Positions 3,253-63,852 of a stretch of DNA of 64,000 nt are shown in pieces. A model generated the notes under the pieces. That model was not told the DNA's origin and searched no databases. It saw only the letters and a list, made by a program, of their open reading frames with translations. Origin of the DNA: an uncultured virus (IMG/VR IMGVR_UViG_3300025284_000066). Taxonomy: Duplodnaviria > Heunggongvirae > Uroviricota > Caudoviricetes. Each line of letters opens with the position of its first letter. Within the stretch, counting starts at the first letter, position 1. A program made the position numbers and the translations under genes. Location of the stretch: IMG/VR virus record IMGVR_UViG_3300025284_000066; one strand, written 5' to 3'.

Positions 3253-3670
3253 TGGTGGACTCCGGGATGGTGACGATTCCCTCGGGCACGTCGAACAGGC
3301 CGAGCGAGCCCTTGTAGGGTGTGAAGGGAAGGGGGCGGACGTTGGCCAGTGCGAAGCCGAAGCAGCCGGGGATGTGCCATCGGCTCAGGTGCGCCAGCGC
3401 TGGCCCGCGGCAATCGGTCAGGTCGGCGATGCCGACGAAGCCCCCGCGCTCGATGGTGTTGCGCGTGACGCCAGCAGCGATGGCTTTGGGCGACGCGCCG
3501 GAGCCTTGGGCGAACGTCCATGCGTCTTCCCACTCTTCGCGAGTCATGCCCTTGGCGGCGTGGATTAGCACCGGGCCGCGGTAGCGCGTGGGCCATGTCC
3601 GGTTTTCGATGTCCTTGCCGGCGTGCACGATGAGCCAAGCCCACGGCTGGCGGATGCTGATGGCCTTCAT
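3245..3670 (-). CDS. ASCH-domain protein
   Basis: MKAISIRQPWAWLIVHAGKDIENRTW...RGPVLIHA...KGSLGLF. Confidence 0.9.
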   Translation of the reverse strand: MKAISIRQPWAWLIVHAGKDIENRTWPTRYRGPVLIHAAKGMTREEWEDAWTFAQGSGASPKAIAAGVTRNTIERGGFVGIADLTDCRGPALAHLSRWHIPGCFGFALANVRPLPFTPYKGSLGLFDVPEGIVTIPESTNG

Positions 3671-9556: not shown

Positions 9557-10273
9557 CTACTGCAGGCGACTTTTGATCTTCTTTCGTGGAACCTCGAACG
9601 CGATGTAGTAGATCCAAGTCACTTCTTCTGGCGAGTAGTGCAGCAGCTTTGGATCGTTGAAGCTGCCGAAGGTGTAGCCATCGCGCCGCGCTAGCAACCG
9701 CTTCATCAGAGTCGTGCCGTCCGCGAGTCGAACAAGCACTTTGTCTTCAAGATCGACGGCTGTGCTCGGTTCCACCAGCACATAGTTCTTGGGATTGAAC
9801 ACGGGGATCATGCTGTCCTCGGCAACCTCCGCGAGAAACGCTAGCGGGTCTGCGCTCAGCACCTCGCCATACAGGTCAGTCATTCCCACTGGGTGATCTC
9901 CATCCGTCCAAATGCGCTTCGGAAGCCCGCCTGCGCCCTTTCCCACCACCCATATCCGACGAAAGCTAGAAGGGTCGACCGGCAGGGCGCCAGCCGGTAT
10001 CTCCGGAGCGGCGTTCGGATCATTTGCACTCGTGCTCTTCGCAGCGGCCACGGCGGCTGCATGGCGCGGGCTTATGTCTTCGAGCGGAACTCCAAAACCA
10101 TTCGCGTAGGCAGTCGCGGCCTCCAGGCTCATTGGCCGTCGTGCCTTGAGGTGCTGGCTGACCATCGATGCCCCACCAGGCACTCGATGCTTCCGCGCGA
10201 AGGCGGCTTGGTTCACGCCTTCAAAGCGCTTGGCCAACCGCTCGGCTTCTTCTTCGGGTGTCCACATTTCCAT
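9557..10273 (-). CDS. cI: CI-like repressor (HTH plus S24 peptidase)
   Basis: HTH NQAAFAR...SMVSQHLKARRP; S24 motifs EDSMIP and MKRL; divergent from cro. Confidence 0.9.
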   Translation of the reverse strand: MEMWTPEEEAERLAKRFEGVNQAAFARKHRVPGGASMVSQHLKARRPMSLEAATAYANGFGVPLEDISPRHAAAVAAAKSTSANDPNAAPEIPAGALPVDPSSFRRIWVVGKGAGGLPKRIWTDGDHPVGMTDLYGEVLSADPLAFLAEVAEDSMIPVFNPKNYVLVEPSTAVDLEDKVLVRLADGTTLMKRLLARRDGYTFGSFNDPKLLHYSPEEVTWIYYIAFEVPRKKIKSRLQ

Positions 10274-10359
10274 TAAGCAATGCTAATAGAGCAGCCATGT
10301 AGCATGGCTTGATGTTGAAATGTAGCGGTGCTACATTAAAGGCATGAGCACTGCTACAC
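10272..10359 (+). promoter_or_regulatory. PR/PRM region with four operators (10272-10288, 10297-10313, 10320-10336, 10343-10359)
   Basis: Same 17-bp dyad; TTGATG-N17-TACATT promoter ending 6 nt before the cro ATG (leaderless). Confidence 0.8.
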
Positions 10360-10634
10360 AAACCGCCGTTGCCGAGGCTTGCGCCATCGTCGGCAGCCAA
10401 TCTGCCCTTGCTGTCGCGATCGACGTGTCGCCCCCGATGGTCAACCAGTGGATCAAGGGAGAGCGCCCGGTGCCGCCAAAAAGCTGCGCGGAAATCGAGC
10501 GCGTCACGAGAGGAGCCGTCACGGTCGATCGCCTCCTTGCCGGTCCTTGGGCTCGCATCAAGGACCGGCGGTGGCCCCATCCCAAGGGGCGCCCGGTTCT
10601 GGATGTTGCGTCGACCGCCAGGGAGGCCGCGTGA
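10344..10634 (+). CDS. cro: Cro-like / YdaS-family HTH regulator
   Basis: GSQSALAVAIDVSPPMVNQWIKGERPVP...IERVTRGAVT. Confidence 0.88.
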   Translation: MSTATQTAVAEACAIVGSQSALAVAIDVSPPMVNQWIKGERPVPPKSCAEIERVTRGAVTVDRLLAGPWARIKDRRWPHPKGRPVLDVASTAREAA

Positions 10635-50724: not shown

Positions 50725-53700
50725 ATGGCTGGCGAAACTCTCAAGCCCTTCGACGGGCAACTCGATACCACACCGCACAACCTCACCCCGTTTTCGGGTG
50801 AGCTCGATCCGCCCGATGCAAAGCGCACCGTGCTCGGCACCGTAAAGGATGTCGGGGTCACGGCGCTGAAGGGCGCGGTCGGCCTTCCGCAGAGCGTCGT
50901 CGGCCTGGCTGACATCGTGACGGGCGGCCGCGCTGGCAAAGCTCTGGAGCAGGCCGGCGTCGGCTTCGAGGAGACACAGAAGTTCCTCGACGACCAATAT
51001 TCCGACGCGCAGAAGGCCGCCAACCGCAAGGTGCAGGCGGCCGATGGCTTCGTCGATACGGCCAAGACCATGCTGGAGAACCCCAGCACCATCGCTACCA
51101 GCGTGGGCGAGTCGATTCCACAGATGCTCGGCGGCGCGGGCGTCGCGCGCGGCTTGCTCAAGGTGGCGCCCAAGATTGCGCCGGCCATCGCTGGCGCCAT
51201 CGGTGAGGGCGTGCTGGGAGCGGGCTCGCAGGCCGAGCAGATCCGCCAAGAGACGCAGGACGGGTTGCTCACCCCGAAGCAGGCGGCTCTGTCCGCCGCG
51301 ACCGGTGCCGCTACTGCTGGCTTCGGTGCACTCGGCGGACGCCTGGCGCAGCGCCTTGGCATCGGCGATGCCGACACGATGCTGGCGCAGGGAGCCATCC
51401 ACGGCGCCGGGCCCGCCTCGCAGCGTTCGCTCGCGCGCCAGGTTGGCGCTGGCATGCTGTCCGAGGGCGTGCTCGAAGAGCTGCCGCAGTCGATGTCCGA
51501 GCAGGCGCTGCAGAACCTCGCGCTGGACAAGCCCGTCGGAGAAGGTGTCGGCAAGGCCGCCGCCGCCGGGTTGCTCGCGGGCGGCGCCATGGGCGGCGGG
51601 GCCGCGCTGTTGCACGGCGCGACTGGTCAGCATGCCCCGAATCAGGCGGAGCCCGGTAGCGCGGAGCGCGTGCCCGGCGAGCAGCTCTCGCTGTTGCCGG
51701 TGGACGAAGCTCCGGCAGCCGCGGCGGCGAGCGAGCTGCCCGCCGTTGCGGGTGGCCTGGCCAGCGTGCAGCGCACCTTCGATCCGCGCGACCCGGGCAG
51801 CCGGCCGCCGCTGGACGTGATGCCCACGGCCCCCACCGATGGAGTGGAGTTCGAGGCGGCGCCGCAGGTCGCGCGCGAGTTCAGCACGGGCAATCTTTCG
51901 CTCGCTGATGAAGCACAGCCCGTGCGCCCCTCCGAAAAGATGGGGCTGGACCCTGCAGCAGGCCCGCTGTCCACTGCCGCCGCGATGGCGGTGGATGGTG
52001 GCGCGCACGACGTGATGAACGCGGCCGCTCAACTCGCCGCTCAGGCCGAAGCCGCCGACGGCAAGGGCACGAAGCCGGCAGCAGCTTCTCCGGCACCCGC
52101 CAGTGTGCCGATGGCGAACGTCAACGCCGAAACCGGCGAGATCTCCGGACAACCGCAAGACCGAGAGGCCGAACTGCGGGCACGCCTGGAGTTCGTGCGC
52201 CAACAGGCCGCGTCGAACGGCTGGGACCAGCGCCTGATCGCCGAGCGCGACAGCGCGCGAGCTGAACTGGCCGCACTTGCGCCCGCTGCCGCAGCGCCGA
52301 CCAGCGTGCAGGAGGGCATCGCTCAAGCGCGCGCCCGCCGCGCAGCGCCCGAATCCGCACCGCAACCCAAAGGAGAAGCCCTTGGCACTCAAGCCGACCA
52401 AGCCCAGCAAGCAGGCACGCAACAAGCGCCGGCAGGAACAGAAGCGCCAGCAGCTGAGCCAATCGCGTCCGCCACAACGCTGACGCCCGCGCCGGCAGCA
52501 CCGGCTGTACCGAACGCGAAGCGCGAGAAGGCGGTGCGCCGCGTGGAAGAAGGGCGCGCATGGTTCTTGTCCCGCGACAAGGCGCAGTCCTTCGTGGACA
52601 CGTCGGGCCTCGCGGACACGCACGAAGTGGTGCCGGACAACCGCCGTTTCGTTGTGCAGGCCAAGGCCGAGCAGCCGGCACAGGATGCGCAGCCGCAAAC
52701 CGCTGCGCCGGCCGATCAGCTGGCGGACCTGCGCCGCCGACGCGCCGAGGCCGAGCCGGGCACGCCCCTGCGCCGCGACATCGATAACGACATCGCGGCG
52801 TTGGAGCGCGAACAGCAGCAAGCAGTTCGCCGGCCTGAAGCGGTAGCGCCGGTGGATGCTGCGGCGAACGAAGCCGCCACCAGCCCGCAGAACGACCTGC
52901 CCGAGCCTAGTCAGGCCCAGAAAGAGGCGGGCAACTACAAGATGGGCCACCTGTCCGGTGACGAGGTACAGGGCCTGCGCATCAGCGTGGAGAACCCGCA
53001 CGGCAGCACGCGCAGCGGCACCTCGCCGGACGGGACCGAGTGGAGCAACACGATGGCCGCGCACTACGGCTACGTGAAGGGCTCCGAGGCAGCAGACGGC
53101 GACCACGTGGATGTGTTCGTCGGGCCGGCAGCCGCGACAGCACCGACGGTCTACGTGGTGGACCAGATCAACGCGGATGGCTCCTACGACGAGGCCAAGG
53201 CGCTGATGGGGTTCAACAGCGAAGCCGAGGCCTTGGCCGCCTACAAGGGGAGTTACAACAAGGGCTGGAAGGTCGGTCCGGTCACCGCGATGTCGATGGA
53301 CGACTTCAAGGCTGCGCTCGCGGACGGGCGCCTGAAGAAGCCGCTCTCGTCCACATTGAGCGAGTCCGTGCGCGAATCCTCGCCCGCTCCAGCAGCGCAG
53401 CGCGCTACGACGATGGAGACGGCGCGCACCGCGCTGGCTTCGTACTTCGATTGGTATCTCAGCCGCAATCCGAAGGCATCCCGTCCGATGGGCGGGATCT
53501 ATCAGGGCAACAGCTTCACGCTCGACTCCGGCGGCGCGCCATTCACGAAGGCGGGCCAGGTGCAGGTGAACGGCTTTAAGGAACTGACCTTCAACTACAC
53601 GGCCGCGTGGAAAGAGGCTCAGTCGCGCGCCGCCGCAGCAGCGCCGGCCGCCGCCCCGATTGCTGCTACCAACGCAGGAGACGAAAATGGACGAAATGCA

Positions 53701-56700
53701 GGAACTGTACCGACCGAACGACTACCCGCCGCCGATCAAGGAAGCGATGCGCGCGATGCCGGCGCTGGCGACCGAGATCGCCAACCGGTGGATGCTCGGG
53801 TGGCCGAAGCGGGTGAAGGCGCTGATCGAGGCGAGCGAGTTCCTGCGGGCGCTGAAGGAGCAGGAGGAGGCCGAGCGGAGGGCGTACAGCGACTCCGGGA
53901 ATCGGCACCTGGCGAGGCACGAGATAGCCGAGTTGTACGGCCTGAGCGACAGTCCGCCGACGCTGTAGCCGACCCGGCGACCGCCGAGGCCTCGCCAAAG
54001 CCCGAGCTCGACCAGTCGGGCGACCACACGCTGGATGCCGACGATATCGGCAAGGGTGGGCTCACCAAGAAGTACCGCGACAACATCGCTGCCATCCGCA
54101 TCCTGAAGGCGCTCGCCAGCGAGAGCCGCAAGGCCACCCCGGAGGAGCGCAAGCAGATCGCGCGCTACGTCGGCTGGGGTGCGCTGAAGGGCGTGTTCGA
54201 CCCGCAGAACAAGCAGTGGGCCAAGGAATTCGCCGAGCTGCGCGAGTTGTTGACCGATGCCGAGTACAAGGCCGCTCGCGCGTCGATGCTGAACGCGCAC
54301 TACACGGCGCCGGTGGTGGTCAACGGCATCTACGATGCGCTCGAGCGCATGGGGTTCACCGCTGGCCGCGTTCTCGAACCGGCGGTGGGAACCGGCAACT
54401 TCTTCGGCCTGATGCCCGCGAGCATGCGCAAGCGCTCGCAGCTGCATGGCGTGGAGCTGGACCCGCTCACCAGCCAGATCGCGGCGGCGCTGTATCCGAG
54501 CGCCAAGGTGGCGCGGGCCACCGCGTTCCAGGACTTCCAGGCCCCGTCCGAGTACTTCGACCTGGCGGTGGGCAATCCGCCATTCGGCTCGGAGCCCATC
54601 GTCGATGACGACCGCTCGCCGTATTCGGGTTTCTCGATCCACAACTACTTCTTCGCCAAGAGCATCGACAAGCTGCGCCCCGGTGGCCTGCTGACTATGG
54701 TGGTGTCGCACAACTTCCTTGACGCCAAGAACGAAGCAGCACGGCAGTGGATCGCCGATCGGGCCAACCTGGTGGCAGCGGTCCGGCTGCCGCGAACCGC
54801 GTTCAAGGAGAACGCCGGCACCGACGTGGTGACCGACATCGTGGTGCTCCAGAAGAAAACGGAATCCGAGCGCGCGAACGGATTGGGCGATGCGGCGTGG
54901 GTGAAGGTCGGCCAGCAGACCCTCACCAACCCGAAGACCGGCGAGGCGACGCAGCACAACGTCAGCAGCTACTTCCTGACCAATCCCGATGCGGTGCTGG
55001 GCACGCCGGTGGCGGCCGGAGCGATGTATCGCCTGGGCGAGTACACGGTGGAGCCCTCTGGCGATCTGGCGCAACAGCTGAAGGCATGGGCCACCGCGCT
55101 CCCGGAAGACCTCTATCAGCCTGTGGAGCGCACGCACGAGCAGGAAGCCGCCGACGTGGTGGTGCCTGACGGTGTGAAGGTCGGTTCGTTCTACGTGGAC
55201 GACAGCGGCCGCGTGCAGATGCGCGGCCCGGATTCGCTGGGCAACCGAACGGCAGAGCCGTGGACGCCGCCCAACGTGAAGGCTGCCGAGCGCATGAAGG
55301 GGATGGTGGGCCTGCGCGACGCGCTGCGAGCACAGATGCGCCTGGAGCGCTCCCCGGACTCGACCGACGGACAGATCGAGCAGCACCGCCGCGAGTTGAA
55401 TCGCCTCTATGACGGGTTCCAGAGCAAGTACGGCTACCTGAACGACCCGACCAACCGCCGCATCTTCCTGGACGACACCGAGTCGGCCCTGGTGCTGGCG
55501 CTGGAGTTCGACTACGACCGTGGCGTGAGCAAGGCGGTGGCCGAGCGCGAGGACATCGAACCGCGTGCGCCCAAGGCGATCAAGGCCGACATCTTCGCGC
55601 GGCGCGTGATGTTCCCGCCCGCGGACAACATCAAGGTGAGCAACGCCAAGGACGCGCTGCTGGCCAGCCTGAACTACAAGGGCCGGCTGGATGCCGCCTA
55701 CATGGCGACGCTGTACGACAAGTCTCCGGCCCAGATCGTGTCGGAGCTTGGTGACGTGGTGTATGCCGACCCGGTGAATGGGCTCGTGATGGCCGACGAA
55801 TATCTGTCGGGCGACGTGAAGACGAAGCTGGCCGAAGCAGAAGCCGCCGCGCGTGACGACCCGGCGCTGCGCCGCAACGTGGAGGCCCTGCGCAAGGTCA
55901 TTCCGGCCGACAAGCGGCCGAGCGAGATCCACGCGGCCATGGGCGCGGCTTTCATTCCACCGGAGCTGTTCCAGCAGTTCGCCAAGGAAGTGACCGGCGC
56001 CGAAGCGCGCGTCACCTACCTGCGCGCTACCGGCCAATGGCTGGTGGACTACACGTCCCAGCCCAACCCGGCGCTCAACACGGCGAAGTGGGGCATTGGC
56101 AGGATGACCGCGCAGAACATCTTCATGCGCACGATGGCCGGCCAGGGCGTGGTGGTCACGGACACCATCCGCGACCCGAACGGTGGTACCCGCACCGTGG
56201 TGCTGGAGAAGGAAACGGAGGCCGCGCGCGAGAAGCAGGCCGCGATGAAGGCCGAATGGCAGCGCTGGCTGTGGAGCGACCCTGAGCGCGCCGACCGTGT
56301 GGCGGGCATCTACAACGACAAGATGAACCGCATCGTGGTGCGGCGCTTCGATGGCTCGCACATGACCTTCCCGGGCATGTCGCCCGCGATGGAGTTGCTG
56401 CCGCACCAGAAAGATGCCGTATGGCGCGCGCTTCAGCAGCGCCAGATCCTGCTGGATCACGTCGTCGGTGCTGGCAAGACCTTCGAGGTTGTGGCTGCCA
56501 TCATGGAAATGCGCCGGCTGGGCATCGCGCGAAAGCCAATCGTCACGGTGCCCAACCACCTCACCCTGCAGTGGCGCAGCGAGTTTTCGCGCCTGTACCC
56601 GGCGGCCAACGTGCTGGCGGCCACGCCCGATGACTTCACCAAGGGCAACCGGGAGAAGTTCTTCTCCAAGATCGTCACCGGCGACTGGGATGCCGTCATC

Positions 56701-59700
56701 ATCGGCCACTCCAGCCTGAAGAGGATCGCGCTGCCGGCCGAAACGGAAAAGGCCGTGCTGGAAGAGCAGATTACCGAGCTGGCCGACAGCATCGGCGAAA
56801 TGAAGCGCGCCCGCGGCGACCGGAATGTCGTGCGCGACATGGAGAGCATCAAGGCCCGCCTGGAAGCCCGCATGAAGCAGCGCGTGCAAGCCCTTGGCGA
56901 GCGCGACAAGGTGGTGACCTTCGACGAGCTCGGCGTCGATGCTTTCGCCATCGACGAGCTGCACGAGTTCAAGAACCTCTTCTACAACTCCACCATGGAG
57001 CGCGTGCCCGGCATGGGCAACCCCGGCGGCTCGGACAAGGCGTTCGACCTGTTCGTGAAGGCGCAGTACCTCTTCGACGCGCTGGGGGACAAGGCGCCGC
57101 TGATGGGCGCGACCGGCACGCCGGTTTCCAACAGCCTGGTGGAAATGTTCAATATGCAGCGGTTCCTGCAGTACCCGACGCTGAAGGCGCAGGGCCTGCA
57201 CGTCTTCGACGCCTGGGCCAAGCAGTTCGGCAGCGTGGAATCGCTGTACGAGGTGTCGCCGTCTGGGACCGGCTACCGCCAGGCCTCGCGCTTCGCCAAG
57301 TTCAAGAACCTGCCGGCGCTGATGGGCATGTACCAGACCTTCGCCGACACGGTGACGCTGGACGATCTGAAGGCGCAAGAGGAAGCCCGAGGCCGCACAT
57401 TCCCGGTGCCGCAGGTGGCCGGCGGCCGCCCGGTGAACGTGGTGGCGAAGCGCTCGCCGGAGGTGGCCAACTTCATGGGCGTGCCGCAACTGGACATCCA
57501 GGGCGGGCGAGTGCAGTTCGGGTTCAACCCGGCCGCTGGGGAGCGCGCAGTTATCGAGAAGGCCGAGGACGGCAACAGCTGGCGCGCCGAAACCCGCGTG
57601 CCGCAGCCCGACGAGAAGGAGATTCGGCAGCTGATCGGCTCGGCCAAGACCGAAGAGGATGCCAAGCTGCTGGTGGTCGAAGCCGCCCTGTCGCCCAAGA
57701 TCAAGGTGGACCCGAAGTCGATCCTCGGCCAGTTCGCCGACCTGAAGCGGCTGACGAAGGAAACGAAGGGGAAGGTCAACGCGCTGTCGCTGACCGGCCA
57801 AGCCAACAAGGCGGGCTTGGACTTCCGCCTGATCGACCCGTCGGCGCCCGACTTCGAGGGCTCGAAGATCAATCTCGCCGTCGACCGCATGCTGGGCACC
57901 TACCAGAAGTGGACCAGCGACCGAGGAACGCAACTGGTCTTCTGCGACCTGTCCGTGCCCCTCTCGGCACGCAGCGGCTTCGGCAGCAAGGAGCGGCGCG
58001 TGTACGTGCGAGACGACGGCGCCCTGGTGCACAAGAAGGGCACCATGCACACGGTTCGCGGCCACGAAGACTTGCCGTTCTTCGTGGTGAAGGAGGGCGG
58101 CAAGGACGCCAAGGCCTTCGCCATCTACGACGCCGCCACGGGCTTGCGCGTGCACGCCGGCCTGCCGGCCAAGGGCATTGCGACCGACTGGGCGGCGCAG
58201 GCCCTGAACGACGACGGCCGCCGCCAGCGCTGGATCGACGCCCGCGACCGCATCGGCGACCTCCAGCAGGACGAGATCGACGACTACAACAACGCCAACG
58301 AGATCGACACCGAGGAAACCGAATCGATCTCGCTGGCCGACATCGCAGGCATGTCGGGAGCCACCGCGTTCTCGGTGTACGACGACATCAAGGGCAAGTT
58401 GATGGCGCGCGGCGTGCCGGAGCGCGAAATCGCCTTCATCCACGACTACAACACGCCCGCAGCGAAGGACAAGCTGTTCAAGGCGGTGAATCGGGGCGAC
58501 ATCCGCTTCCTGCTGGGCTCCACGCCGAAGATGGGCGCCGGCACCAACGTGCAGGAGCGCCTGGTCGGGCTGCATCACATTGACGCGCCCTGGCGCCCGA
58601 GCGACCTGGAGCAACGCGAGGGCCGCATCATCCGCCGCGGCAATGCGCTCTATGCTCGTGACCCGGATGGTTTCGAGGTGGAAATCTACCGCTACGCCAC
58701 CGAGCAGACCTACGACACCCGCCGGTGGCAGATCCTGGAGCACAAGGCTCGCGGCATCGAGCAGCTGCGTAAGTACGACGGCACCCTCAACGAGATCGAC
58801 GACATCGAGGGGGAGGCCGCCAACGCGGCCGACATGAAGGCCGCCGCCTCGGGCGACCCGCTCATCCTGGAAGAAACACGGCTCCGCAACGATGTGCGCC
58901 GCCTCGAATCACTGCAAGCCTCCCACGCGGACGAAACGGCTTCGATGGTGCGCCAGGCGCGCGACCAACAACGCTTCGCGCAAGACTGGGGCCCGAAGGA
59001 GCTGGAAACGTTCCGAGGTCTGCAGGCTGCCGCCGAGGCCAACCCGGTGCCCAAGGATGGCTTCGCTGGCCTGACCGTTGCCGGGAAGACGATCACCGAC
59101 CGCGAAGCGGCTATCAAGGCCGTCAAGCGGGGCATCGATCGTGTGTTCGTAAGCGGCGGGCAGGAGGAGTTCCAGTACCGAGGCGTGACCTTCATGCTGG
59201 AAGGCACGCCCGACCACGTGGAGCTCAATTCGCCCACCGGTGGGCTGGATTCCTATCGGCCGGCCAGGGACGTGCTGCCGTCGGCGGCGGGCATCCTGAC
59301 CCGCTTCGGCAACTACATCAACCGTCTCCCGGCGCACATCGTCGACCTCGATGCGAAGATCACGGAAGCGAAGCAGGCGGCAGTGCAATTGCGCGAGCAG
59401 GCCGGCAAGCCATTCGCCCAGGCGAAGGAGCTGGAGTCAGCACGCGAGGCACATCGCCGGGTGCAGCGCCGGCTCGTGGCGAAGGGGCCGGACATCCCGC
59501 TGAACCAGCGACCCGCCCTGCAGAAGGCCATGGCCGAGCAGCGCCAGCAGCTCATCGAGCAGGGGTTCGGGGATACGCTCGAGGAGTTCGGCGGTGGCGC
59601 CGACGATGCGCAGTTCCGCCGGGACGGGACCGAAATGCTGTCGCCCGAGGCAGCCAGAGCCATGCGGGCGCTCCTGCCCAACTACTCGCCGCAGGCTCGC

Positions 59701-62700
59701 GCACAGGCTGTAGCGTCTGTGACCAAGACGGTGGAGGCGATTCGCGCCGGTTGGGGCAACGGGCCCGAGGTGATCGTGGCGTTCGACATGGGCGACCCGG
59801 TTGTGCCCGGGGCGGCCCGCCGCGCGGACCTGAAGCAGCGCAGCGGCGGCGCACGGGGCGCTCCCGAGGGCTTCTACTACCGTGGCAAGGCCTACTTGAT
59901 GGCCTCGCGGCTGCCCACGGCCAACGATGCGGCGCGCGTGCTCTTTCACGAAGTACTCGGCCACCACGGGCTGCGCGGCCAGTTCGGCAAGGGGCTGGAT
60001 GACGTGCTGAACCAGATCGGCACCATGCGCCGCGCCGACGTGGACGCGAAGATCAATGAATACGGGCTGCGCGGCGTCAACAAGCTCGACCGGCGCGCCG
60101 CGGCGGAGGAAGTCCTGGCCGAAATGGCGCAGACCCATCCCGAACTGCACTTCGTGCGTCGCGCCATCGCCGCGATCCGCACCTGGCTGCGCGAGCACGT
60201 GCCGGGCTTCAGCAACCTGCGGATGACGGACGACGAGATCGTGCGCAACTTCATCCTGCCGGCTCGGCGCTTCGTTGAGCAGGGCGGCCCGGACGGCGGG
60301 CCCAGCGACGGGCTGCGCTTCAGCCGTGGTGACGCGGGCCCCGCCTCGACCAACAGCCTCGATGCCCCCATCGCCGCCGACGACGACGGTGTAGCGAACT
60401 TCTGGCACTGGTACAGTGGGCAGGATGGAAGCCTCAAAGACACCCGAAGCGGCACGCAAGGATCTGGAGGAACTGCTGGCGGAGCTGCCGCCGGTGGGCC
60501 CGGCCGAGATGGCGGCGCATCTGGGCGACTCGGACCCGTTGATGCGCAAGGCCGCCCGCTCGTATTTTTCCACGGCACGCGAGACGACTTCACCGCGTTC
60601 GATACCGAGCACCCAAACCGAAAAGACGTAGGCTGGCTTGGCCGCGGCGTCTACGGTGCGAGCGACCCGGCGGACGCCAACTACTATGCCGGCGCAAAGC
60701 GCGGCGGCGGTGGGCAGCGCGTCATGCCGCTGTACTTCGCGGTCACGAACCCCTACGTTGCCACGCCGGAAATCAAGGCCCGTCTGAAGCGGGCCACGCA
60801 GGCGCAGGTCGATCGCTTCACGGCAAACCTGCGCGCGATGGGGCACGACGGCGTGACGCTCACTGCCGAAGATGGCTCGGTGGAGATCGTCGCGTTCGAT
60901 CCCAGCCAGGTGAAATCGGCCATCGGCAACAGTGGGGCATTCGACGCTGGCACCTCGGACATCCGGTTCAGCCGATCCACGGTGCAGGACTTCGCCAAGA
61001 AGGCCACCGCCGAGCTCAATAAGACTTTCAATGCGCCCGGCAAGTTGTCCTGGTGGCACAAGACCGTGGGCACCATGTACAACCTCGCGGAGCGTTCGCC
61101 AGCCTTCAAGGCGGTGTTCGACTCAGCGCAAGGGTTCGTCGACGACGTGAGCTTCTACGCCAACGACGCGGCCGAACTGGCGCCCAAGCTGCTGCCGAAG
61201 CTGGAGACGTGGCGCGACATCAAGAAAGCGCCGGTGGCCGCGGCCGACAACGCCGCAGTGGCGAAGCCAGTCTTCGAAGGCACGCTGACCTGGGCGCGAG
61301 ACGAACAGGGCAAGCCGGTACCGGTGCAGTCGCTCATCGACGCGGCGGCCGAGCTGTCGGCCGACCAGAAGGCGCAGCGCCTGCTGCGAAACGGGCAGAT
61401 CGACGAGCGCATGCTGAAGGCATGGCAGGGCATGCCCCTGGAGTCCTACGAGAAGGCTATCAATACGCGCTTCGAGTCGCGCATGCTGCAGCCGGGCGTC
61501 GTCTGGACCGATGCGGAGCTGCGCTCCATGTTCAAGCTCTCGGACGATCAGATCGCGCTCTACCACGAGTTCCGCGAGACGACCGACCGGAGCCTGGACA
61601 CGATGGCGCGCGCCGACATGCTGCGTTTCGTGGGCGACGATGCCAAGGGCATGCGTGGCATGGTGATGGATGCGCCGGATGCCCAGGCGGCGGCCGTGCT
61701 GCTGCGCGATCACCTGGTGCAGCTGGCCAACGAGCAGCCTGACCGCGCGACCCAGATCCTGAATACCGCCAACGGCATCATCGACCGGGCCGACAAGGTG
61801 CGCGACCTGCAGGCCCGTGGGTATGCGCCGCTGTCACGCTTCGGCCGCTACTCGGTCGACGTGGTGGACGCTGCCGGCGAGCGGCAGTACTTCGGCCTGT
61901 TCGAGACGGCACGCGAGGCCAACAATATGGCCGCCCAGATGCGGGAGGAGTTCGGCGATGCCACCGTCACCCAGGGCACACTGTCGGAGGAGGCCTTCAA
62001 GCTCTTCGCTGGCGTGACGCCCGAGACGCTGGAACTCTTCGGCAATGCCCTCGGCCTCGATTCGACCGGTGACAGCGCGCAGGACCAGGCTTTCCAGGAA
62101 TACCTGCGGCTGACGAAGACCAACCGCAGCGCAATGCGGCGGCTGATCCATCGCAAGGGCATCGCCGGTTTCAGCGAAGACGTGGGCCGCGTGCTGGCTT
62201 CCTTCATCTACTCGAACGCGCGCCAGACGGCCGCCGGCCTGCACATGGGCGACCTCGGCGAGGCGGTGCAGGCCATCCCGAAGGAACAGGGCGAGCTGAA
62301 AGATGCCGCCGTGCGCCTGGCCGACTATGTGAAGAACCCGCAGGAGGAGGCGCAGGCGGTGCGCGGGCTGCTGTTCGCGCAGTACCTGGGTGGCTCGGTG
62401 GCGTCGGCGTTCGTGAACATGACCCAGCCTATCGCGGTGACGATGCCGTGGCTGAGCCAGTACGGCGGCGCGCGCGCGGCGGCCGCGCAGATCGGCCGGG
62501 CCGCGAAGAACATCGCCACGCGCGGCTTCGAATACGAACCGGATCTCGCTGCGGCGCTCAAGCGCGCCGAGGACGAGGGGACCGTGAGCCCGCAGGAGGT
62601 GCACCAGCTGATGGCGCAGGCGCGCGGCGCGAGCTCGCTGCGCTCCGGCGATGGCACGCGCGGCGGCGAGCTGCGCGCGATGGGCCAGAACGCGCTGTCG

Positions 62701-63852
62701 CGCTTGTCGCTGGCATGGGGGAAGCTCTTCGGCGCCGCCGAGCAGGTGAATCGCCGCATCACCTTCATCGCGGCCTACCGAACGGCGAAGGCGCAGGGCA
62801 TCGAAGACCCGGCAGGATTTGCTCGCAAGGCGATCACCGAGACGCAGTTCCTCTACTCGAAGGCGAACAAGATGGAGTGGGGCAGGGGGGCGATCGGCGG
62901 CACGCTGATGACCTTCAAGACCTACTCGGTGGCTTACCTCGAGCTGCTGCACCGCATGTACACGCAGGGTGGGCCAGAGGGCAAGCGCGCCGCGCTGCTG
63001 GCGCTGGGCATGCTGATGCTGATGGGCGGCGCCGGCGGGCTGCCGTTCGAGGAAGACCTGGAGGATGCGGTCGACGCGCTGGCGCAGATGCTCGGCTACA
63101 ACTTCTCGACGAAGAAGGCCCGCCAGGAATTTCTGGAGAGCCTGCTGCCGAAGCCGATCGCGCAGTTCATCGACAAGGGCGTGAGCGGTCTGCCCGGCGC
63201 GCCGCTGGATGTGTCGGGCCGCCTCGGCATGGGCAACCTGATTCCGGGCACGGGCCTGCTGCTGGAGAAGACCAGCCACGCGCGCGACCTGCTGGAGATC
63301 GCGGGCCCGGCCGGCGACTTCGCCAGCCGCATCCTCTCCGGCGGCCGCAGCATGCTCACTGGCGACGTGGGCGCCGGGCTGCTGGAAATGTCGCCCGCAG
63401 CGGTGCGCAACGCGGCCAAGGGCGTGGACATGGCCGCGACCGGCATGTATCGGGATGCCAAGGGCTACAAGGTGCTGGACACGAACACGCTGGAGGCGGC
63501 CCTCAAGGGCATCGGCTTCCAGCCGAACAGCGTGGCCACCATCCAGGAGGCGAACGGCATCAACCAGGGCGCGAAGGCGTTCTACAACCTGCGTGCGCAG
63601 GAGATCCGGGCGCTGTGGGCACAGGGCGTGTTCGAGGGCGACCAGCAGAAGGTGCAGGAAGCCCGCGACCAGGTTGCCGCGTGGAACCGGAAGAACCCTG
63701 AGCAGCCGATGCTCGTACGCATCCCCGACGTGATGCGCCGGGTGCGGGAAATGCGCAAGTCCAAAGATGAGCGGATCGCTGATACCGCGCCGCGGGCGAT
63801 GCGTGCTCAGATGCGCGAAGAGGCGGCTCGGGCACGTGCCGACACCATGTAG
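50725..63852 (+). CDS. Giant DarB-like polyvalent virion protein (InPase-like, N6 MTase, SNF2 helicase, zincin, ART-like, PLxRFG)
   Basis: ENP...HYGY...DGDHVDVF; EPAVGTG...GNPPF; VGAGKT...DELH...ATGTP...QREGRIIR; HEVLGH; FHGT...GVY...GHDGV...EIVAF; PLSRFG. Confidence 0.92.
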   Translation: MAGETLKPFDGQLDTTPHNLTPFSGELDPPDAKRTVLGTVKDVGVTALKGAVGLPQSVVGLADIVTGGRAGKALEQAGVGFEETQKFLDDQYSDAQKAANRKVQAADGFVDTAKTMLENPSTIATSVGESIPQMLGGAGVARGLLKVAPKIAPAIAGAIGEGVLGAGSQAEQIRQETQDGLLTPKQAALSAATGAATAGFGALGGRLAQRLGIGDADTMLAQGAIHGAGPASQRSLARQVGAGMLSEGVLEELPQSMSEQALQNLALDKPVGEGVGKAAAAGLLAGGAMGGGAALLHGATGQHAPNQAEPGSAERVPGEQLSLLPVDEAPAAAAASELPAVAGGLASVQRTFDPRDPGSRPPLDVMPTAPTDGVEFEAAPQVAREFSTGNLSLADEAQPVRPSEKMGLDPAAGPLSTAAAMAVDGGAHDVMNAAAQLAAQAEAADGKGTKPAAASPAPASVPMANVNAETGEISGQPQDREAELRARLEFVRQQAASNGWDQRLIAERDSARAELAALAPAAAAPTSVQEGIAQARARRAAPESAPQPKGEALGTQADQAQQAGTQQAPAGTEAPAAEPIASATTLTPAPAAPAVPNAKREKAVRRVEEGRAWFLSRDKAQSFVDTSGLADTHEVVPDNRRFVVQAKAEQPAQDAQPQTAAPADQLADLRRRRAEAEPGTPLRRDIDNDIAALEREQQQAVRRPEAVAPVDAAANEAATSPQNDLPEPSQAQKEAGNYKMGHLSGDEVQGLRISVENPHGSTRSGTSPDGTEWSNTMAAHYGYVKGSEAADGDHVDVFVGPAAATAPTVYVVDQINADGSYDEAKALMGFNSEAEALAAYKGSYNKGWKVGPVTAMSMDDFKAALADGRLKKPLSSTLSESVRESSPAPAAQRATTMETARTALASYFDWYLSRNPKASRPMGGIYQGNSFTLDSGGAPFTKAGQVQVNGFKELTFNYTAAWKEAQSRAAAAAPAAAPIAATNAGDENGRNAGTVPTERLPAADQGSDARDAGAGDRDRQPVDARVAEAGEGADRGERVPAGAEGAGGGRAEGVQRLRESAPGEARDSRVVRPERQSADAVADPATAEASPKPELDQSGDHTLDADDIGKGGLTKKYRDNIAAIRILKALASESRKATPEERKQIARYVGWGALKGVFDPQNKQWAKEFAELRELLTDAEYKAARASMLNAHYTAPVVVNGIYDALERMGFTAGRVLEPAVGTGNFFGLMPASMRKRSQLHGVELDPLTSQIAAALYPSAKVARATAFQDFQAPSEYFDLAVGNPPFGSEPIVDDDRSPYSGFSIHNYFFAKSIDKLRPGGLLTMVVSHNFLDAKNEAARQWIADRANLVAAVRLPRTAFKENAGTDVVTDIVVLQKKTESERANGLGDAAWVKVGQQTLTNPKTGEATQHNVSSYFLTNPDAVLGTPVAAGAMYRLGEYTVEPSGDLAQQLKAWATALPEDLYQPVERTHEQEAADVVVPDGVKVGSFYVDDSGRVQMRGPDSLGNRTAEPWTPPNVKAAERMKGMVGLRDALRAQMRLERSPDSTDGQIEQHRRELNRLYDGFQSKYGYLNDPTNRRIFLDDTESALVLALEFDYDRGVSKAVAEREDIEPRAPKAIKADIFARRVMFPPADNIKVSNAKDALLASLNYKGRLDAAYMATLYDKSPAQIVSELGDVVYADPVNGLVMADEYLSGDVKTKLAEAEAAARDDPALRRNVEALRKVIPADKRPSEIHAAMGAAFIPPELFQQFAKEVTGAEARVTYLRATGQWLVDYTSQPNPALNTAKWGIGRMTAQNIFMRTMAGQGVVVTDTIRDPNGGTRTVVLEKETEAAREKQAAMKAEWQRWLWSDPERADRVAGIYNDKMNRIVVRRFDGSHMTFPGMSPAMELLPHQKDAVWRALQQRQILLDHVVGAGKTFEVVAAIMEMRRLGIARKPIVTVPNHLTLQWRSEFSRLYPAANVLAATPDDFTKGNREKFFSKIVTGDWDAVIIGHSSLKRIALPAETEKAVLEEQITELADSIGEMKRARGDRNVVRDMESIKARLEARMKQRVQALGERDKVVTFDELGVDAFAIDELHEFKNLFYNSTMERVPGMGNPGGSDKAFDLFVKAQYLFDALGDKAPLMGATGTPVSNSLVEMFNMQRFLQYPTLKAQGLHVFDAWAKQFGSVESLYEVSPSGTGYRQASRFAKFKNLPALMGMYQTFADTVTLDDLKAQEEARGRTFPVPQVAGGRPVNVVAKRSPEVANFMGVPQLDIQGGRVQFGFNPAAGERAVIEKAEDGNSWRAETRVPQPDEKEIRQLIGSAKTEEDAKLLVVEAALSPKIKVDPKSILGQFADLKRLTKETKGKVNALSLTGQANKAGLDFRLIDPSAPDFEGSKINLAVDRMLGTYQKWTSDRGTQLVFCDLSVPLSARSGFGSKERRVYVRDDGALVHKKGTMHTVRGHEDLPFFVVKEGGKDAKAFAIYDAATGLRVHAGLPAKGIATDWAAQALNDDGRRQRWIDARDRIGDLQQDEIDDYNNANEIDTEETESISLADIAGMSGATAFSVYDDIKGKLMARGVPEREIAFIHDYNTPAAKDKLFKAVNRGDIRFLLGSTPKMGAGTNVQERLVGLHHIDAPWRPSDLEQREGRIIRRGNALYARDPDGFEVEIYRYATEQTYDTRRWQILEHKARGIEQLRKYDGTLNEIDDIEGEAANAADMKAAASGDPLILEETRLRNDVRRLESLQASHADETASMVRQARDQQRFAQDWGPKELETFRGLQAAAEANPVPKDGFAGLTVAGKTITDREAAIKAVKRGIDRVFVSGGQEEFQYRGVTFMLEGTPDHVELNSPTGGLDSYRPARDVLPSAAGILTRFGNYINRLPAHIVDLDAKITEAKQAAVQLREQAGKPFAQAKELESAREAHRRVQRRLVAKGPDIPLNQRPALQKAMAEQRQQLIEQGFGDTLEEFGGGADDAQFRRDGTEMLSPEAARAMRALLPNYSPQARAQAVASVTKTVEAIRAGWGNGPEVIVAFDMGDPVVPGAARRADLKQRSGGARGAPEGFYYRGKAYLMASRLPTANDAARVLFHEVLGHHGLRGQFGKGLDDVLNQIGTMRRADVDAKINEYGLRGVNKLDRRAAAEEVLAEMAQTHPELHFVRRAIAAIRTWLREHVPGFSNLRMTDDEIVRNFILPARRFVEQGGPDGGPSDGLRFSRGDAGPASTNSLDAPIAADDDGVANFWHWYSGQDGSLKDTRSGTQGSGGTAGGAAAGGPGRDGGASGRLGPVDAQGRPLVFFHGTRDDFTAFDTEHPNRKDVGWLGRGVYGASDPADANYYAGAKRGGGGQRVMPLYFAVTNPYVATPEIKARLKRATQAQVDRFTANLRAMGHDGVTLTAEDGSVEIVAFDPSQVKSAIGNSGAFDAGTSDIRFSRSTVQDFAKKATAELNKTFNAPGKLSWWHKTVGTMYNLAERSPAFKAVFDSAQGFVDDVSFYANDAAELAPKLLPKLETWRDIKKAPVAAADNAAVAKPVFEGTLTWARDEQGKPVPVQSLIDAAAELSADQKAQRLLRNGQIDERMLKAWQGMPLESYEKAINTRFESRMLQPGVVWTDAELRSMFKLSDDQIALYHEFRETTDRSLDTMARADMLRFVGDDAKGMRGMVMDAPDAQAAAVLLRDHLVQLANEQPDRATQILNTANGIIDRADKVRDLQARGYAPLSRFGRYSVDVVDAAGERQYFGLFETAREANNMAAQMREEFGDATVTQGTLSEEAFKLFAGVTPETLELFGNALGLDSTGDSAQDQAFQEYLRLTKTNRSAMRRLIHRKGIAGFSEDVGRVLASFIYSNARQTAAGLHMGDLGEAVQAIPKEQGELKDAAVRLADYVKNPQEEAQAVRGLLFAQYLGGSVASAFVNMTQPIAVTMPWLSQYGGARAAAAQIGRAAKNIATRGFEYEPDLAAALKRAEDEGTVSPQEVHQLMAQARGASSLRSGDGTRGGELRAMGQNALSRLSLAWGKLFGAAEQVNRRITFIAAYRTAKAQGIEDPAGFARKAITETQFLYSKANKMEWGRGAIGGTLMTFKTYSVAYLELLHRMYTQGGPEGKRAALLALGMLMLMGGAGGLPFEEDLEDAVDALAQMLGYNFSTKKARQEFLESLLPKPIAQFIDKGVSGLPGAPLDVSGRLGMGNLIPGTGLLLEKTSHARDLLEIAGPAGDFASRILSGGRSMLTGDVGAGLLEMSPAAVRNAAKGVDMAATGMYRDAKGYKVLDTNTLEAALKGIGFQPNSVATIQEANGINQGAKAFYNLRAQEIRALWAQGVFEGDQQKVQEARDQVAAWNRKNPEQPMLVRIPDVMRRVREMRKSKDERIADTAPRAMRAQMREEAARARADTM
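52382..52483 (+). CDS. Candidate nested +1-frame basic peptide (33 aa)
   Basis: AAAGGAG RBS 6 nt before TTG; MALKPTKPSKQARNKRRQEQKRQQLSQSRPPQR. Confidence 0.35.
   Translation: MALKPTKPSKQARNKRRQEQKRQQLSQSRPPQR
53687..53968 (+). CDS. Nested +1-frame gene (93 aa) inside the giant ORF
   Basis: AGGAG RBS 6 nt before ATG; globular-looking helical protein, while the host frame is a low-complexity linker. Confidence 0.7.
   Translation: MDEMQELYRPNDYPPPIKEAMRAMPALATEIANRWMLGWPKRVKALIEASEFLRALKEQEEAERRAYSDSGNRHLARHEIAELYGLSDSPPTL
60425..60631 (+). CDS. Nested +1-frame gene (68 aa) at the start of the ART-like domain
   Basis: Extended -10 TGgTACAGT 7 nt before ATG; host frame is a Gly-rich insertion here. 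Confidence 0.5.
   Translation: MEASKTPEAARKDLEELLAELPPVGPAEMAAHLGDSDPLMRKAARSYFSTARETTSPRSIPSTQTEKT

Follow-up and report, generated by a model that had tools for sequence, protein, structure and literature searches.

Is the open reading frame that runs out of register through the ADP-ribosyltransferase (ART) domain of a giant phage protein a gene in its own right, and if so, what would its product do to the enzyme around it? The window, by which we mean the whole 64,000-nucleotide stretch of viral DNA analysed here, covers most of a 68.5-kb provirus, in which terminase genes are present alongside a CI-like repressor and cro. Its giant protein, whose nearest named relatives come from Variovorax, contains InPase (residues 730-865), N6-methyltransferase (~1212-1352), SNF2 helicase (~1889-2639) and ART-PolyVal (3273-3406) domains. 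The features on which the argument turns are as follows:

9557-10273, minus strand: CI-like repressor, forming a temperate switch with cro
From 10344 (switch region 9557..10634), plus strand: cro, with an extended -10 and a leaderless start, as at ORF3
50725..63852, plus strand: giant polyvalent (DarB-like) gene, 4375 aa, the last large gene of the window
60397..60414, plus strand: NFWHWY, the host-frame N-terminal ART helix motif, whose Trp-Tyr codons, with the next Ser codon, carry the predicted promoter
60409..60417, plus strand: extended -10 TGGTACAGT, with a 7-nt spacer to the ATG and no Shine-Dalgarno (SD) sequence; predicted leaderless sigma-70 promoter
60421..60537, plus strand: host-frame insert rich in Gly, Ala and Arg, modelled by AlphaFold as disordered
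60425..60631, plus strand: nested ORF3, 68 aa, in the +1 frame of the giant gene, with an ATG start
60541..60942, plus strand: putative ART-PolyVal catalytic core, with His3283 (60571), Tyr3310 (60652) and Glu3387 (60883)

The gap between cI and cro (10274-10343) contains repeated palindromic boxes, which are probable operators, and cI itself also seemingly starts without an SD.

The initial annotation of this locus had placed an extended -10 at 60409-60417, followed by 7 nt and an ATG at 60425, and these positions were confirmed on the sequence. It had further described ORF3 as coinciding with an insert of about 35 residues that splits NFWHWY from the ART core, with the two motifs given as nearly contiguous elsewhere, and both points were borne out by measurement: the Trp-to-His distance is 54 residues in the window's ART, while the commonest distance outside the subfamily is 18 (22 of 55 ART-PolyVal domains, the W motif being not found in 21), which sets the insert at 36 residues. 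In the AlphaFold model of the ART (mean pLDDT 77), residues 15-45, corresponding to the insert, fall under a pLDDT of 50, and the GC3 of the host frame drops from about 0.9 to 0.47 across ORF3. Residues 1-48 of the 68 had been quoted originally; the last 20 are a non-conserved shadow of the ART core, because the stops of homologous ORFs vary in place, lying 5-34 codons past the His codon and, in two cases, before it.

The start signal was also examined against other genes of the window. The claim that its geometry is common to cro, terS and the giant gene held for cro, whereas terS and the giant gene, which have an A..T hexamer 6-7 nt before the ATG plus a separate upstream motif, show a loose likeness only. 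Since ORF3 is without that upstream motif, its predicted promoter is cro-like and unlike those of terS and the giant gene. The pattern TG-N-TA-NNN-T with an ATG 6-8 nt further on has only two occurrences when both strands of the 64 kb are scanned (cro at 10344, and ORF3; 0.55 expected), and to judge from the motif, the predicted promoter may be constitutively active. A standard promoter scan gave no match at ORF3, because the scan requires a -35. A small share of one run, examined for expression, gave three short contigs, none overlying ORF3, which bears on its expression neither way. A repressor-operator half-site match near the ORF3 promoter was rejected, as it is not kept in the Variovorax paradoxus locus (L092).

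The coding status of ORF3 was investigated by comparison across loci. A search with a 16-row ART alignment returned 164 ART-like matches, 112 of them non-redundant, and 57 were placed in the subfamily on the strength of a motif that does not involve the insert. Aligning ART homologs with and without the insert, a check that had been suggested earlier, revealed that the insert-bearing loci carry an open +1 frame: an ATG-started open +1 ORF lies in the insert in 48 of the 57 non-redundant subfamily loci, two more keep the +1 frame open in the insert with the start not found, and seven contain neither insert nor ORF. One locus (L156) was excluded as a carrier, having no insert and an ATG that is there by chance. 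When stops were counted independently of start choice over 43 long spacers (2142 codons), 7 were found in the +1 frame versus 126 in the +2 frame; 30 ARTs without the insert had 61 +1 stops in 1350 codons. Between the window and L092, host codon positions 1, 2 and 3 carry 11, 1 and 2 substitutions, so that 11 of the 14 changes are +1 wobble positions, and residue changes affect 12 of 37 positions in the host frame versus 3 of 36 in the peptide. Across ten close pairs, the +1 frame was less changed in eight, equally changed in one and more changed in one.

Start signals were likewise conserved. An SD core precedes the nested start in 30 of 53 loci (background, 131 of 1406 other +1 ATGs), and an identical extended -10 with the 7-nt spacer and a leaderless start was found in 6 of 53 (background, 3 of 1406), the two signals being mutually exclusive among the 53 loci. 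The host Ser codon in the -10 is AGT in all six leaderless loci, and this codon accounts for 5 of the 209 Ser codons of the window's giant gene. Conservation of the leaderless promoter was upheld comparatively, yet is restricted to one subclade; it appears to be that subclade's solution, with a Shine-Dalgarno sequence serving in most relatives. In most loci, drawn from several phyla, no more than a few codons separate the nested start from the ART Trp motif, and the insert-carrying giant proteins differ in domain make-up. Stop depletion, the substitution pattern and the conserved start signals uphold the coding status of ORF3, and on these sequence comparisons we regard it as almost certainly a real gene. 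The nested gene is also carried by a cultured phage of temperate type, Dartukuta (L240, MW749009.1), where it lies unannotated inside DARTUKUTA_57 as a 60-codon, SD-led frame; the record gives the host as Bacillus, yet CsrA-like and PrtN-like proteins are encoded.

The conserved part of the ORF3 product, about residues 1-48, is an acidic amphipathic helix ending in Leu-Pro, and Cys and a signal sequence are absent from the 68-aa product. Nested products are net negative in 46 of 52 cases, with a mean identity among the peptides of 17%, and a sister peptide subtype was modelled, at low confidence, as a two-helix hairpin. A peptide profile search identified 54 representatives listed by gene callers, in single, doubled, tripled and fused forms, some of the fused forms joining unrelated domains. 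Pfam and PHROG scans assigned no family to the ORF3 peptide, to the sister nested gene ORF2 or to the orphan fusion described below, and in the Atlas the ORF3 peptide drew only weak HEAT-like leads (2233 against 2300).

The surrounding domain matches PF18760 (ART-PolyVal) over residues 3273-3406 with 88.5 bits (curated cut-off 31.2). His3283, Tyr3310 and Glu3387 (H62, Y89 and E166) are the same in all 34 aligned clade members, D154 being nearly invariant, and the model's strands place the His in strand 1, the Tyr in strand 2 and the acid in a later strand; Glu3387 is the putative catalytic acid, assigned from sequence rather than from superposition. The model's fold matches comprise PARP/tankyrase, ParT and MbcT. 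A pre-ejectosome protein of cyanophage A4 (PDB 9k3a chain B) also matches the model (E 1.7e-3), and a term search of the accessible text of its paper gave no occurrence of "ADP-ribosyl." The available part of PMC5512222 (Iyer et al. 2017) ranks ART-PolyVal as the commonest protein-modifying domain of polyvalent proteins and predicts that polyvalent ARTs, like T4 Alt, enter the virion and are injected, and the available part of PMC9144972 reports that the DarB-like gp69 of phage JC1 was found in virions by mass spectrometry. The ART-PolyVal domain of the window likewise lies inside a giant multidomain phage protein (a 4375-aa ORF in a provirus), and NAD+-dependent activity and virion packaging are predicted for it by analogy.

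All 21 insert ARTs compared have the putative catalytic Glu, versus 17 of 79 short (no-insert) ARTs; the peptide therefore seems to accompany the ART form most likely to be active, provided that the Glu has the role proposed. F116, which we take to be temperate, has a Glu-bearing ART without the peptide. A temperate sign (provirus, integrase or S24 repressor) was observed in 12 of 14 carrier records and in 0 of 7 same-subfamily no-insert records, a link that is suggestive only, because these seven records (four complete 39-40-kb GenBank podophages and three partial marine records) represent about two lineages. In a quick version of the ART tree, in which support is weak, the clade with all 36 insert rows also takes in 9 no-insert rows. 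The subfamily further includes small ARTs that stand alone (L148, L149, L151 and L153); these have a hydrophobic segment at the N-terminus and lack a nested ORF.

What becomes of the peptide when the enzyme around it is lost can be followed in bacterial chromosomes. In 10 non-redundant loci of the 27 examined (L108, L109, L112, L114, L150, L158, L161, L164, L168 and L169), a 300-700-bp islet centred on the ORF is kept and the rest of the 13-kb gene is gone; these islets span the start signal and the ORF and lie amid chromosomal or mobile-element genes. Within the genus Nitrosospira, to which G002 belongs, the peptide profile identified 11 copies in 6 of 43 genomes; in 10 of the 11 the peptide frame is open and its ATG is kept, and among these 10, six are interrupted in the host frame by stops within the first 45 codons. 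Orphans with a broken ART frame retain the peptide and its ribosome site, one genome (G013) contains a tandem pair, and two orphans of this set are fused to a new domain. In the same 43 genomes, 12 of 14 matches to an ART profile stop short of the Glu; the other two run through to the end and belong to ARTs without the insert. Among the 11 orphans, with the L179 row left out of the comparison, the peptide frame gave pN 0.32 and pS 0.62, and the old host frame pN 0.43 and pS 0.27. The peptide profile found no copy in 401 genomes of the order of G003, where it also missed the known copy of G003, so that this absence carries no weight. L108 is the only orphan of the window's subtype, most of the well-characterised orphans being of the sister peptide subtype, and three remnants contain decayed peptides (L182, L227 and L229).

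The peptide thus outlives the ART and seems to benefit cells in which the enzyme is no longer made, and because its gene survives in chromosomes after the surrounding enzyme has decayed, it is likely to be an antidote against the ART. Orphan immunity genes of polymorphic toxin systems are partners that are kept without an intact toxin, sometimes in tandem; the same was found here, with the partner gene kept in the absence of an intact toxin and sometimes in tandem. The fused orphans (L181 and L188; P0128-P0140) join the peptide to a 120-aa domain resembling unnamed viral proteins, within a conserved family of 169 aa whose sole named member is from Nitrosospira; the fusion model is of low confidence (pLDDT 54) with unnamed fold matches, and the Atlas placed the fusion partner among unnamed viral clusters. 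A few compact remnants keep the whole ART and its nested peptide and no other part of the giant gene (L094:2908-3825, L103:2176-3468, L105 and L128), and resemble stand-alone toxin-antitoxin cassettes.

A second nested gene of the window bears on how specific this behaviour is:

53696..53968, plus strand: ORF2, the sister nested +1 gene, 90 aa, preceded by an SD and lying directly before the methyltransferase

ORF2 is nested in all distinct viral loci examined and is conserved in 27 viral loci, and it was found free-standing with its own SD in 24 of the 43 genomes of the genus of G002 (L230-L239). ORF2 has also been captured by hosts, and host capture is therefore not specific to the ART partner; the pattern fits one antidote per effector and, equally, useful lysogen genes hidden in linkers. 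In G001, about 1.2 kb separates one ORF2 copy from an ORF3 orphan that has decayed, and two further copies (L231 and L232) adjoin the same kind of gene, which from its appearance we take to be an ADP-ribosylglycohydrolase.

The reading that we favour, with a probability of roughly 0.6, is that the acidic helical peptide encoded by ORF3 binds and inhibits the surrounding ART, and three indirect supports are new to this antitoxin reading, namely the survival of orphan copies, the association with the putative catalytic Glu and that with a temperate lifestyle. As predicted, virions would carry the ART and inject it together with their DNA, and a leaderless promoter read by the host polymerase would supply the peptide both in the lysogen and shortly after the DNA has entered. 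CI would silence incoming DNA and a pre-made injected enzyme would escape it, and we propose that, CI being unable to stop the injected enzyme, a lysogen would depend on an antidote to withstand sibling virions. In a new lysogen, the peptide would switch off the ART received at infection; lytic phages would have no need of an antidote; and bacteria could capture the 300-700-bp cassette, to their gain, as orphan immunity. Nesting may also tie the antidote to the ART domain during the domain shuffling of polyvalent proteins, and since nesting forces co-inheritance, the position of ORF3 in the ART is not independent evidence. Counted against the antidote are the observations that nested +1 genes are a common habit of these giant genes, that ARTs occur without the peptide in 7 of 57 subfamily loci and in four GenBank podophages, and that the Glu is kept in 17 of 79 short ARTs, F116 included.

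Other explanations were weighed against this reading. That ORF3 is merely an untranslated by-product of the Gly-rich linker, as the blank Pfam and PHROG scans and the weak Atlas recognition (2233 against 2300) might suggest, is largely refuted and strikes us as exceedingly improbable in view of the stop depletion, the wobble-biased substitutions, the conserved SD or promoter, the survival of the peptide after host-frame death and the 54 family representatives listed by gene callers. The peptide could instead be a lysogen-expressed accessory gene (for superinfection exclusion, anti-defence or another benefit) that sits in a tolerant loop and has a non-ART target, and much of what we observed would suit such a gene: ORF2 is nested elsewhere and likewise retained by hosts, the peptide module is also found on its own, in double or triple form and joined to domains unrelated to it, same-subfamily ARTs exist without it, and the temperate link would agree with any gene of benefit to a lysogen. 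We nonetheless consider this unlikely, given a start near the ART Trp motif in most loci across several phyla and varied giant proteins, and a Glu that is found in all 21 insert ARTs and is missing from most short ones.

Less probable again, although tied to the same enzyme, is a peptide that partners the ART in another way, either as a virion-assembly chaperone or as an activator or targeting adaptor produced shortly after infection. The tight linkage of the peptide to the Glu-bearing clade and the 30 of 53 loci with an SD only, which could be translated from the late giant-gene mRNA, are consistent with such a role, which leaves unexplained the purifying selection on the chromosomal peptide after ART death as well as the cro-like promoter of the window's subclade. 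Extending the antidote reading, we hold tentatively, at somewhat short of even odds, that temperate phages nest an out-of-frame antidote with its own promoter in each injected effector domain as superinfection immunity against injected proteins, and that bacteria steal the ORF3 peptide and ORF2 as unannotated anti-phage defence.

Rz1 lies in the +1 frame of Rz and encodes a product that partners Rz. Its likeness to ORF3 is that of a gene embedded in a phage gene (spanins of phage JC1, available part of PMC9144972); Rz1 is a lysis lipoprotein, whereas the ORF3 peptide, without Cys or signal, sits in an enzyme domain, and no nested lipoprotein gene in a lysis cassette is present at ORF3. In its manner of working, ORF3 would resemble the Rpn gene-within-gene (RpnL/RpnS), for which the accessible part of PMC10400941 describes a promoter and start inside the toxin gene that give rise to a small, variable inhibitor. 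The conserved motifs at ORF3 are candidates for an internal promoter and start; however, RpnS comes from a host defence gene and is the C-terminal tail of the toxin itself, translated separately, while ORF3 encodes an unrelated out-of-frame protein over the ART N-terminus in a phage virion gene, is not a C-terminal domain of the toxin, and has a predicted inhibitory role. In T4-like phages, according to the accessible part of PMC11825919, an orphan antitoxin against DarTG1 neutralises an ADP-ribosyltransferase, the antidote there being an enzyme of the phage directed at an ART of the host; the ORF3 case is reversed, with hosts holding a predicted binding peptide against a phage ART.

Type II systems such as ParST, MbcTA and RES-Xre (PDB 6d0h, 6fkg and 9r35) also combine an ART-fold toxin with a protein antitoxin, their TM-scores to the ART model being low (about 0.4). 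They consist of two adjacent genes in a small operon, whereas ORF3 is nested in a 13-kb ORF, and Pfam and PHROG scans gave no similarity of the ORF3 peptide to their antitoxins; ORF3/ART would not be filed as a type II system, and the analogy would extend to working alike only. The available text of PMC5512222 describes the same domain in a giant InPase-methyltransferase-SNF2 protein, with an H-Y-D site, whereas the ORF3-bearing subfamily has an invariant Glu and, unlike that description, a 25-80-residue insert encoding a second protein; a term search of this text gave neither "overlap" nor "low complexity."

In open-access main texts we found no report of this nested gene, or of nested genes or inhibitors for polyvalent ARTs, nor were nested genes or inhibitors of polyvalent ARTs reported in the accessible part of PMC9503650; a tested activity, target or regulator of ART-PolyVal was also not found in the open-access literature. 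If the antidote reading is true, a cognate inhibitor would make the ART-PolyVal domain clonable and testable, out-of-frame toxin-antidote nesting would be demonstrated, a class of immunity against injected virion proteins would come to light, and a function would be given to small genes, so far unannotated, on the chromosomes of nitrifiers and other bacteria. Tests are within reach because Dartukuta carries the gene and Variovorax paradoxus a near-identical copy (L092).

Two further features of the window were noted. A 15-bp motif occurs six times (22490, 28521, 30488, 40291, 48569 and 50680; 0.07 expected), with two exact copies preceding terS and the giant gene, and is a probable phage-activated late promoter element. 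Within the giant gene, a short basic +1-frame ORF of 33 aa lies at about 52371-52472 under a dip in GC3, with a TTG start and the SD AAGGAG. A Pfam scan of this ORF from a slightly shifted start gave no match, and its Arg-rich helix recalls what we take to be the RNA-binding arm of lambda N.
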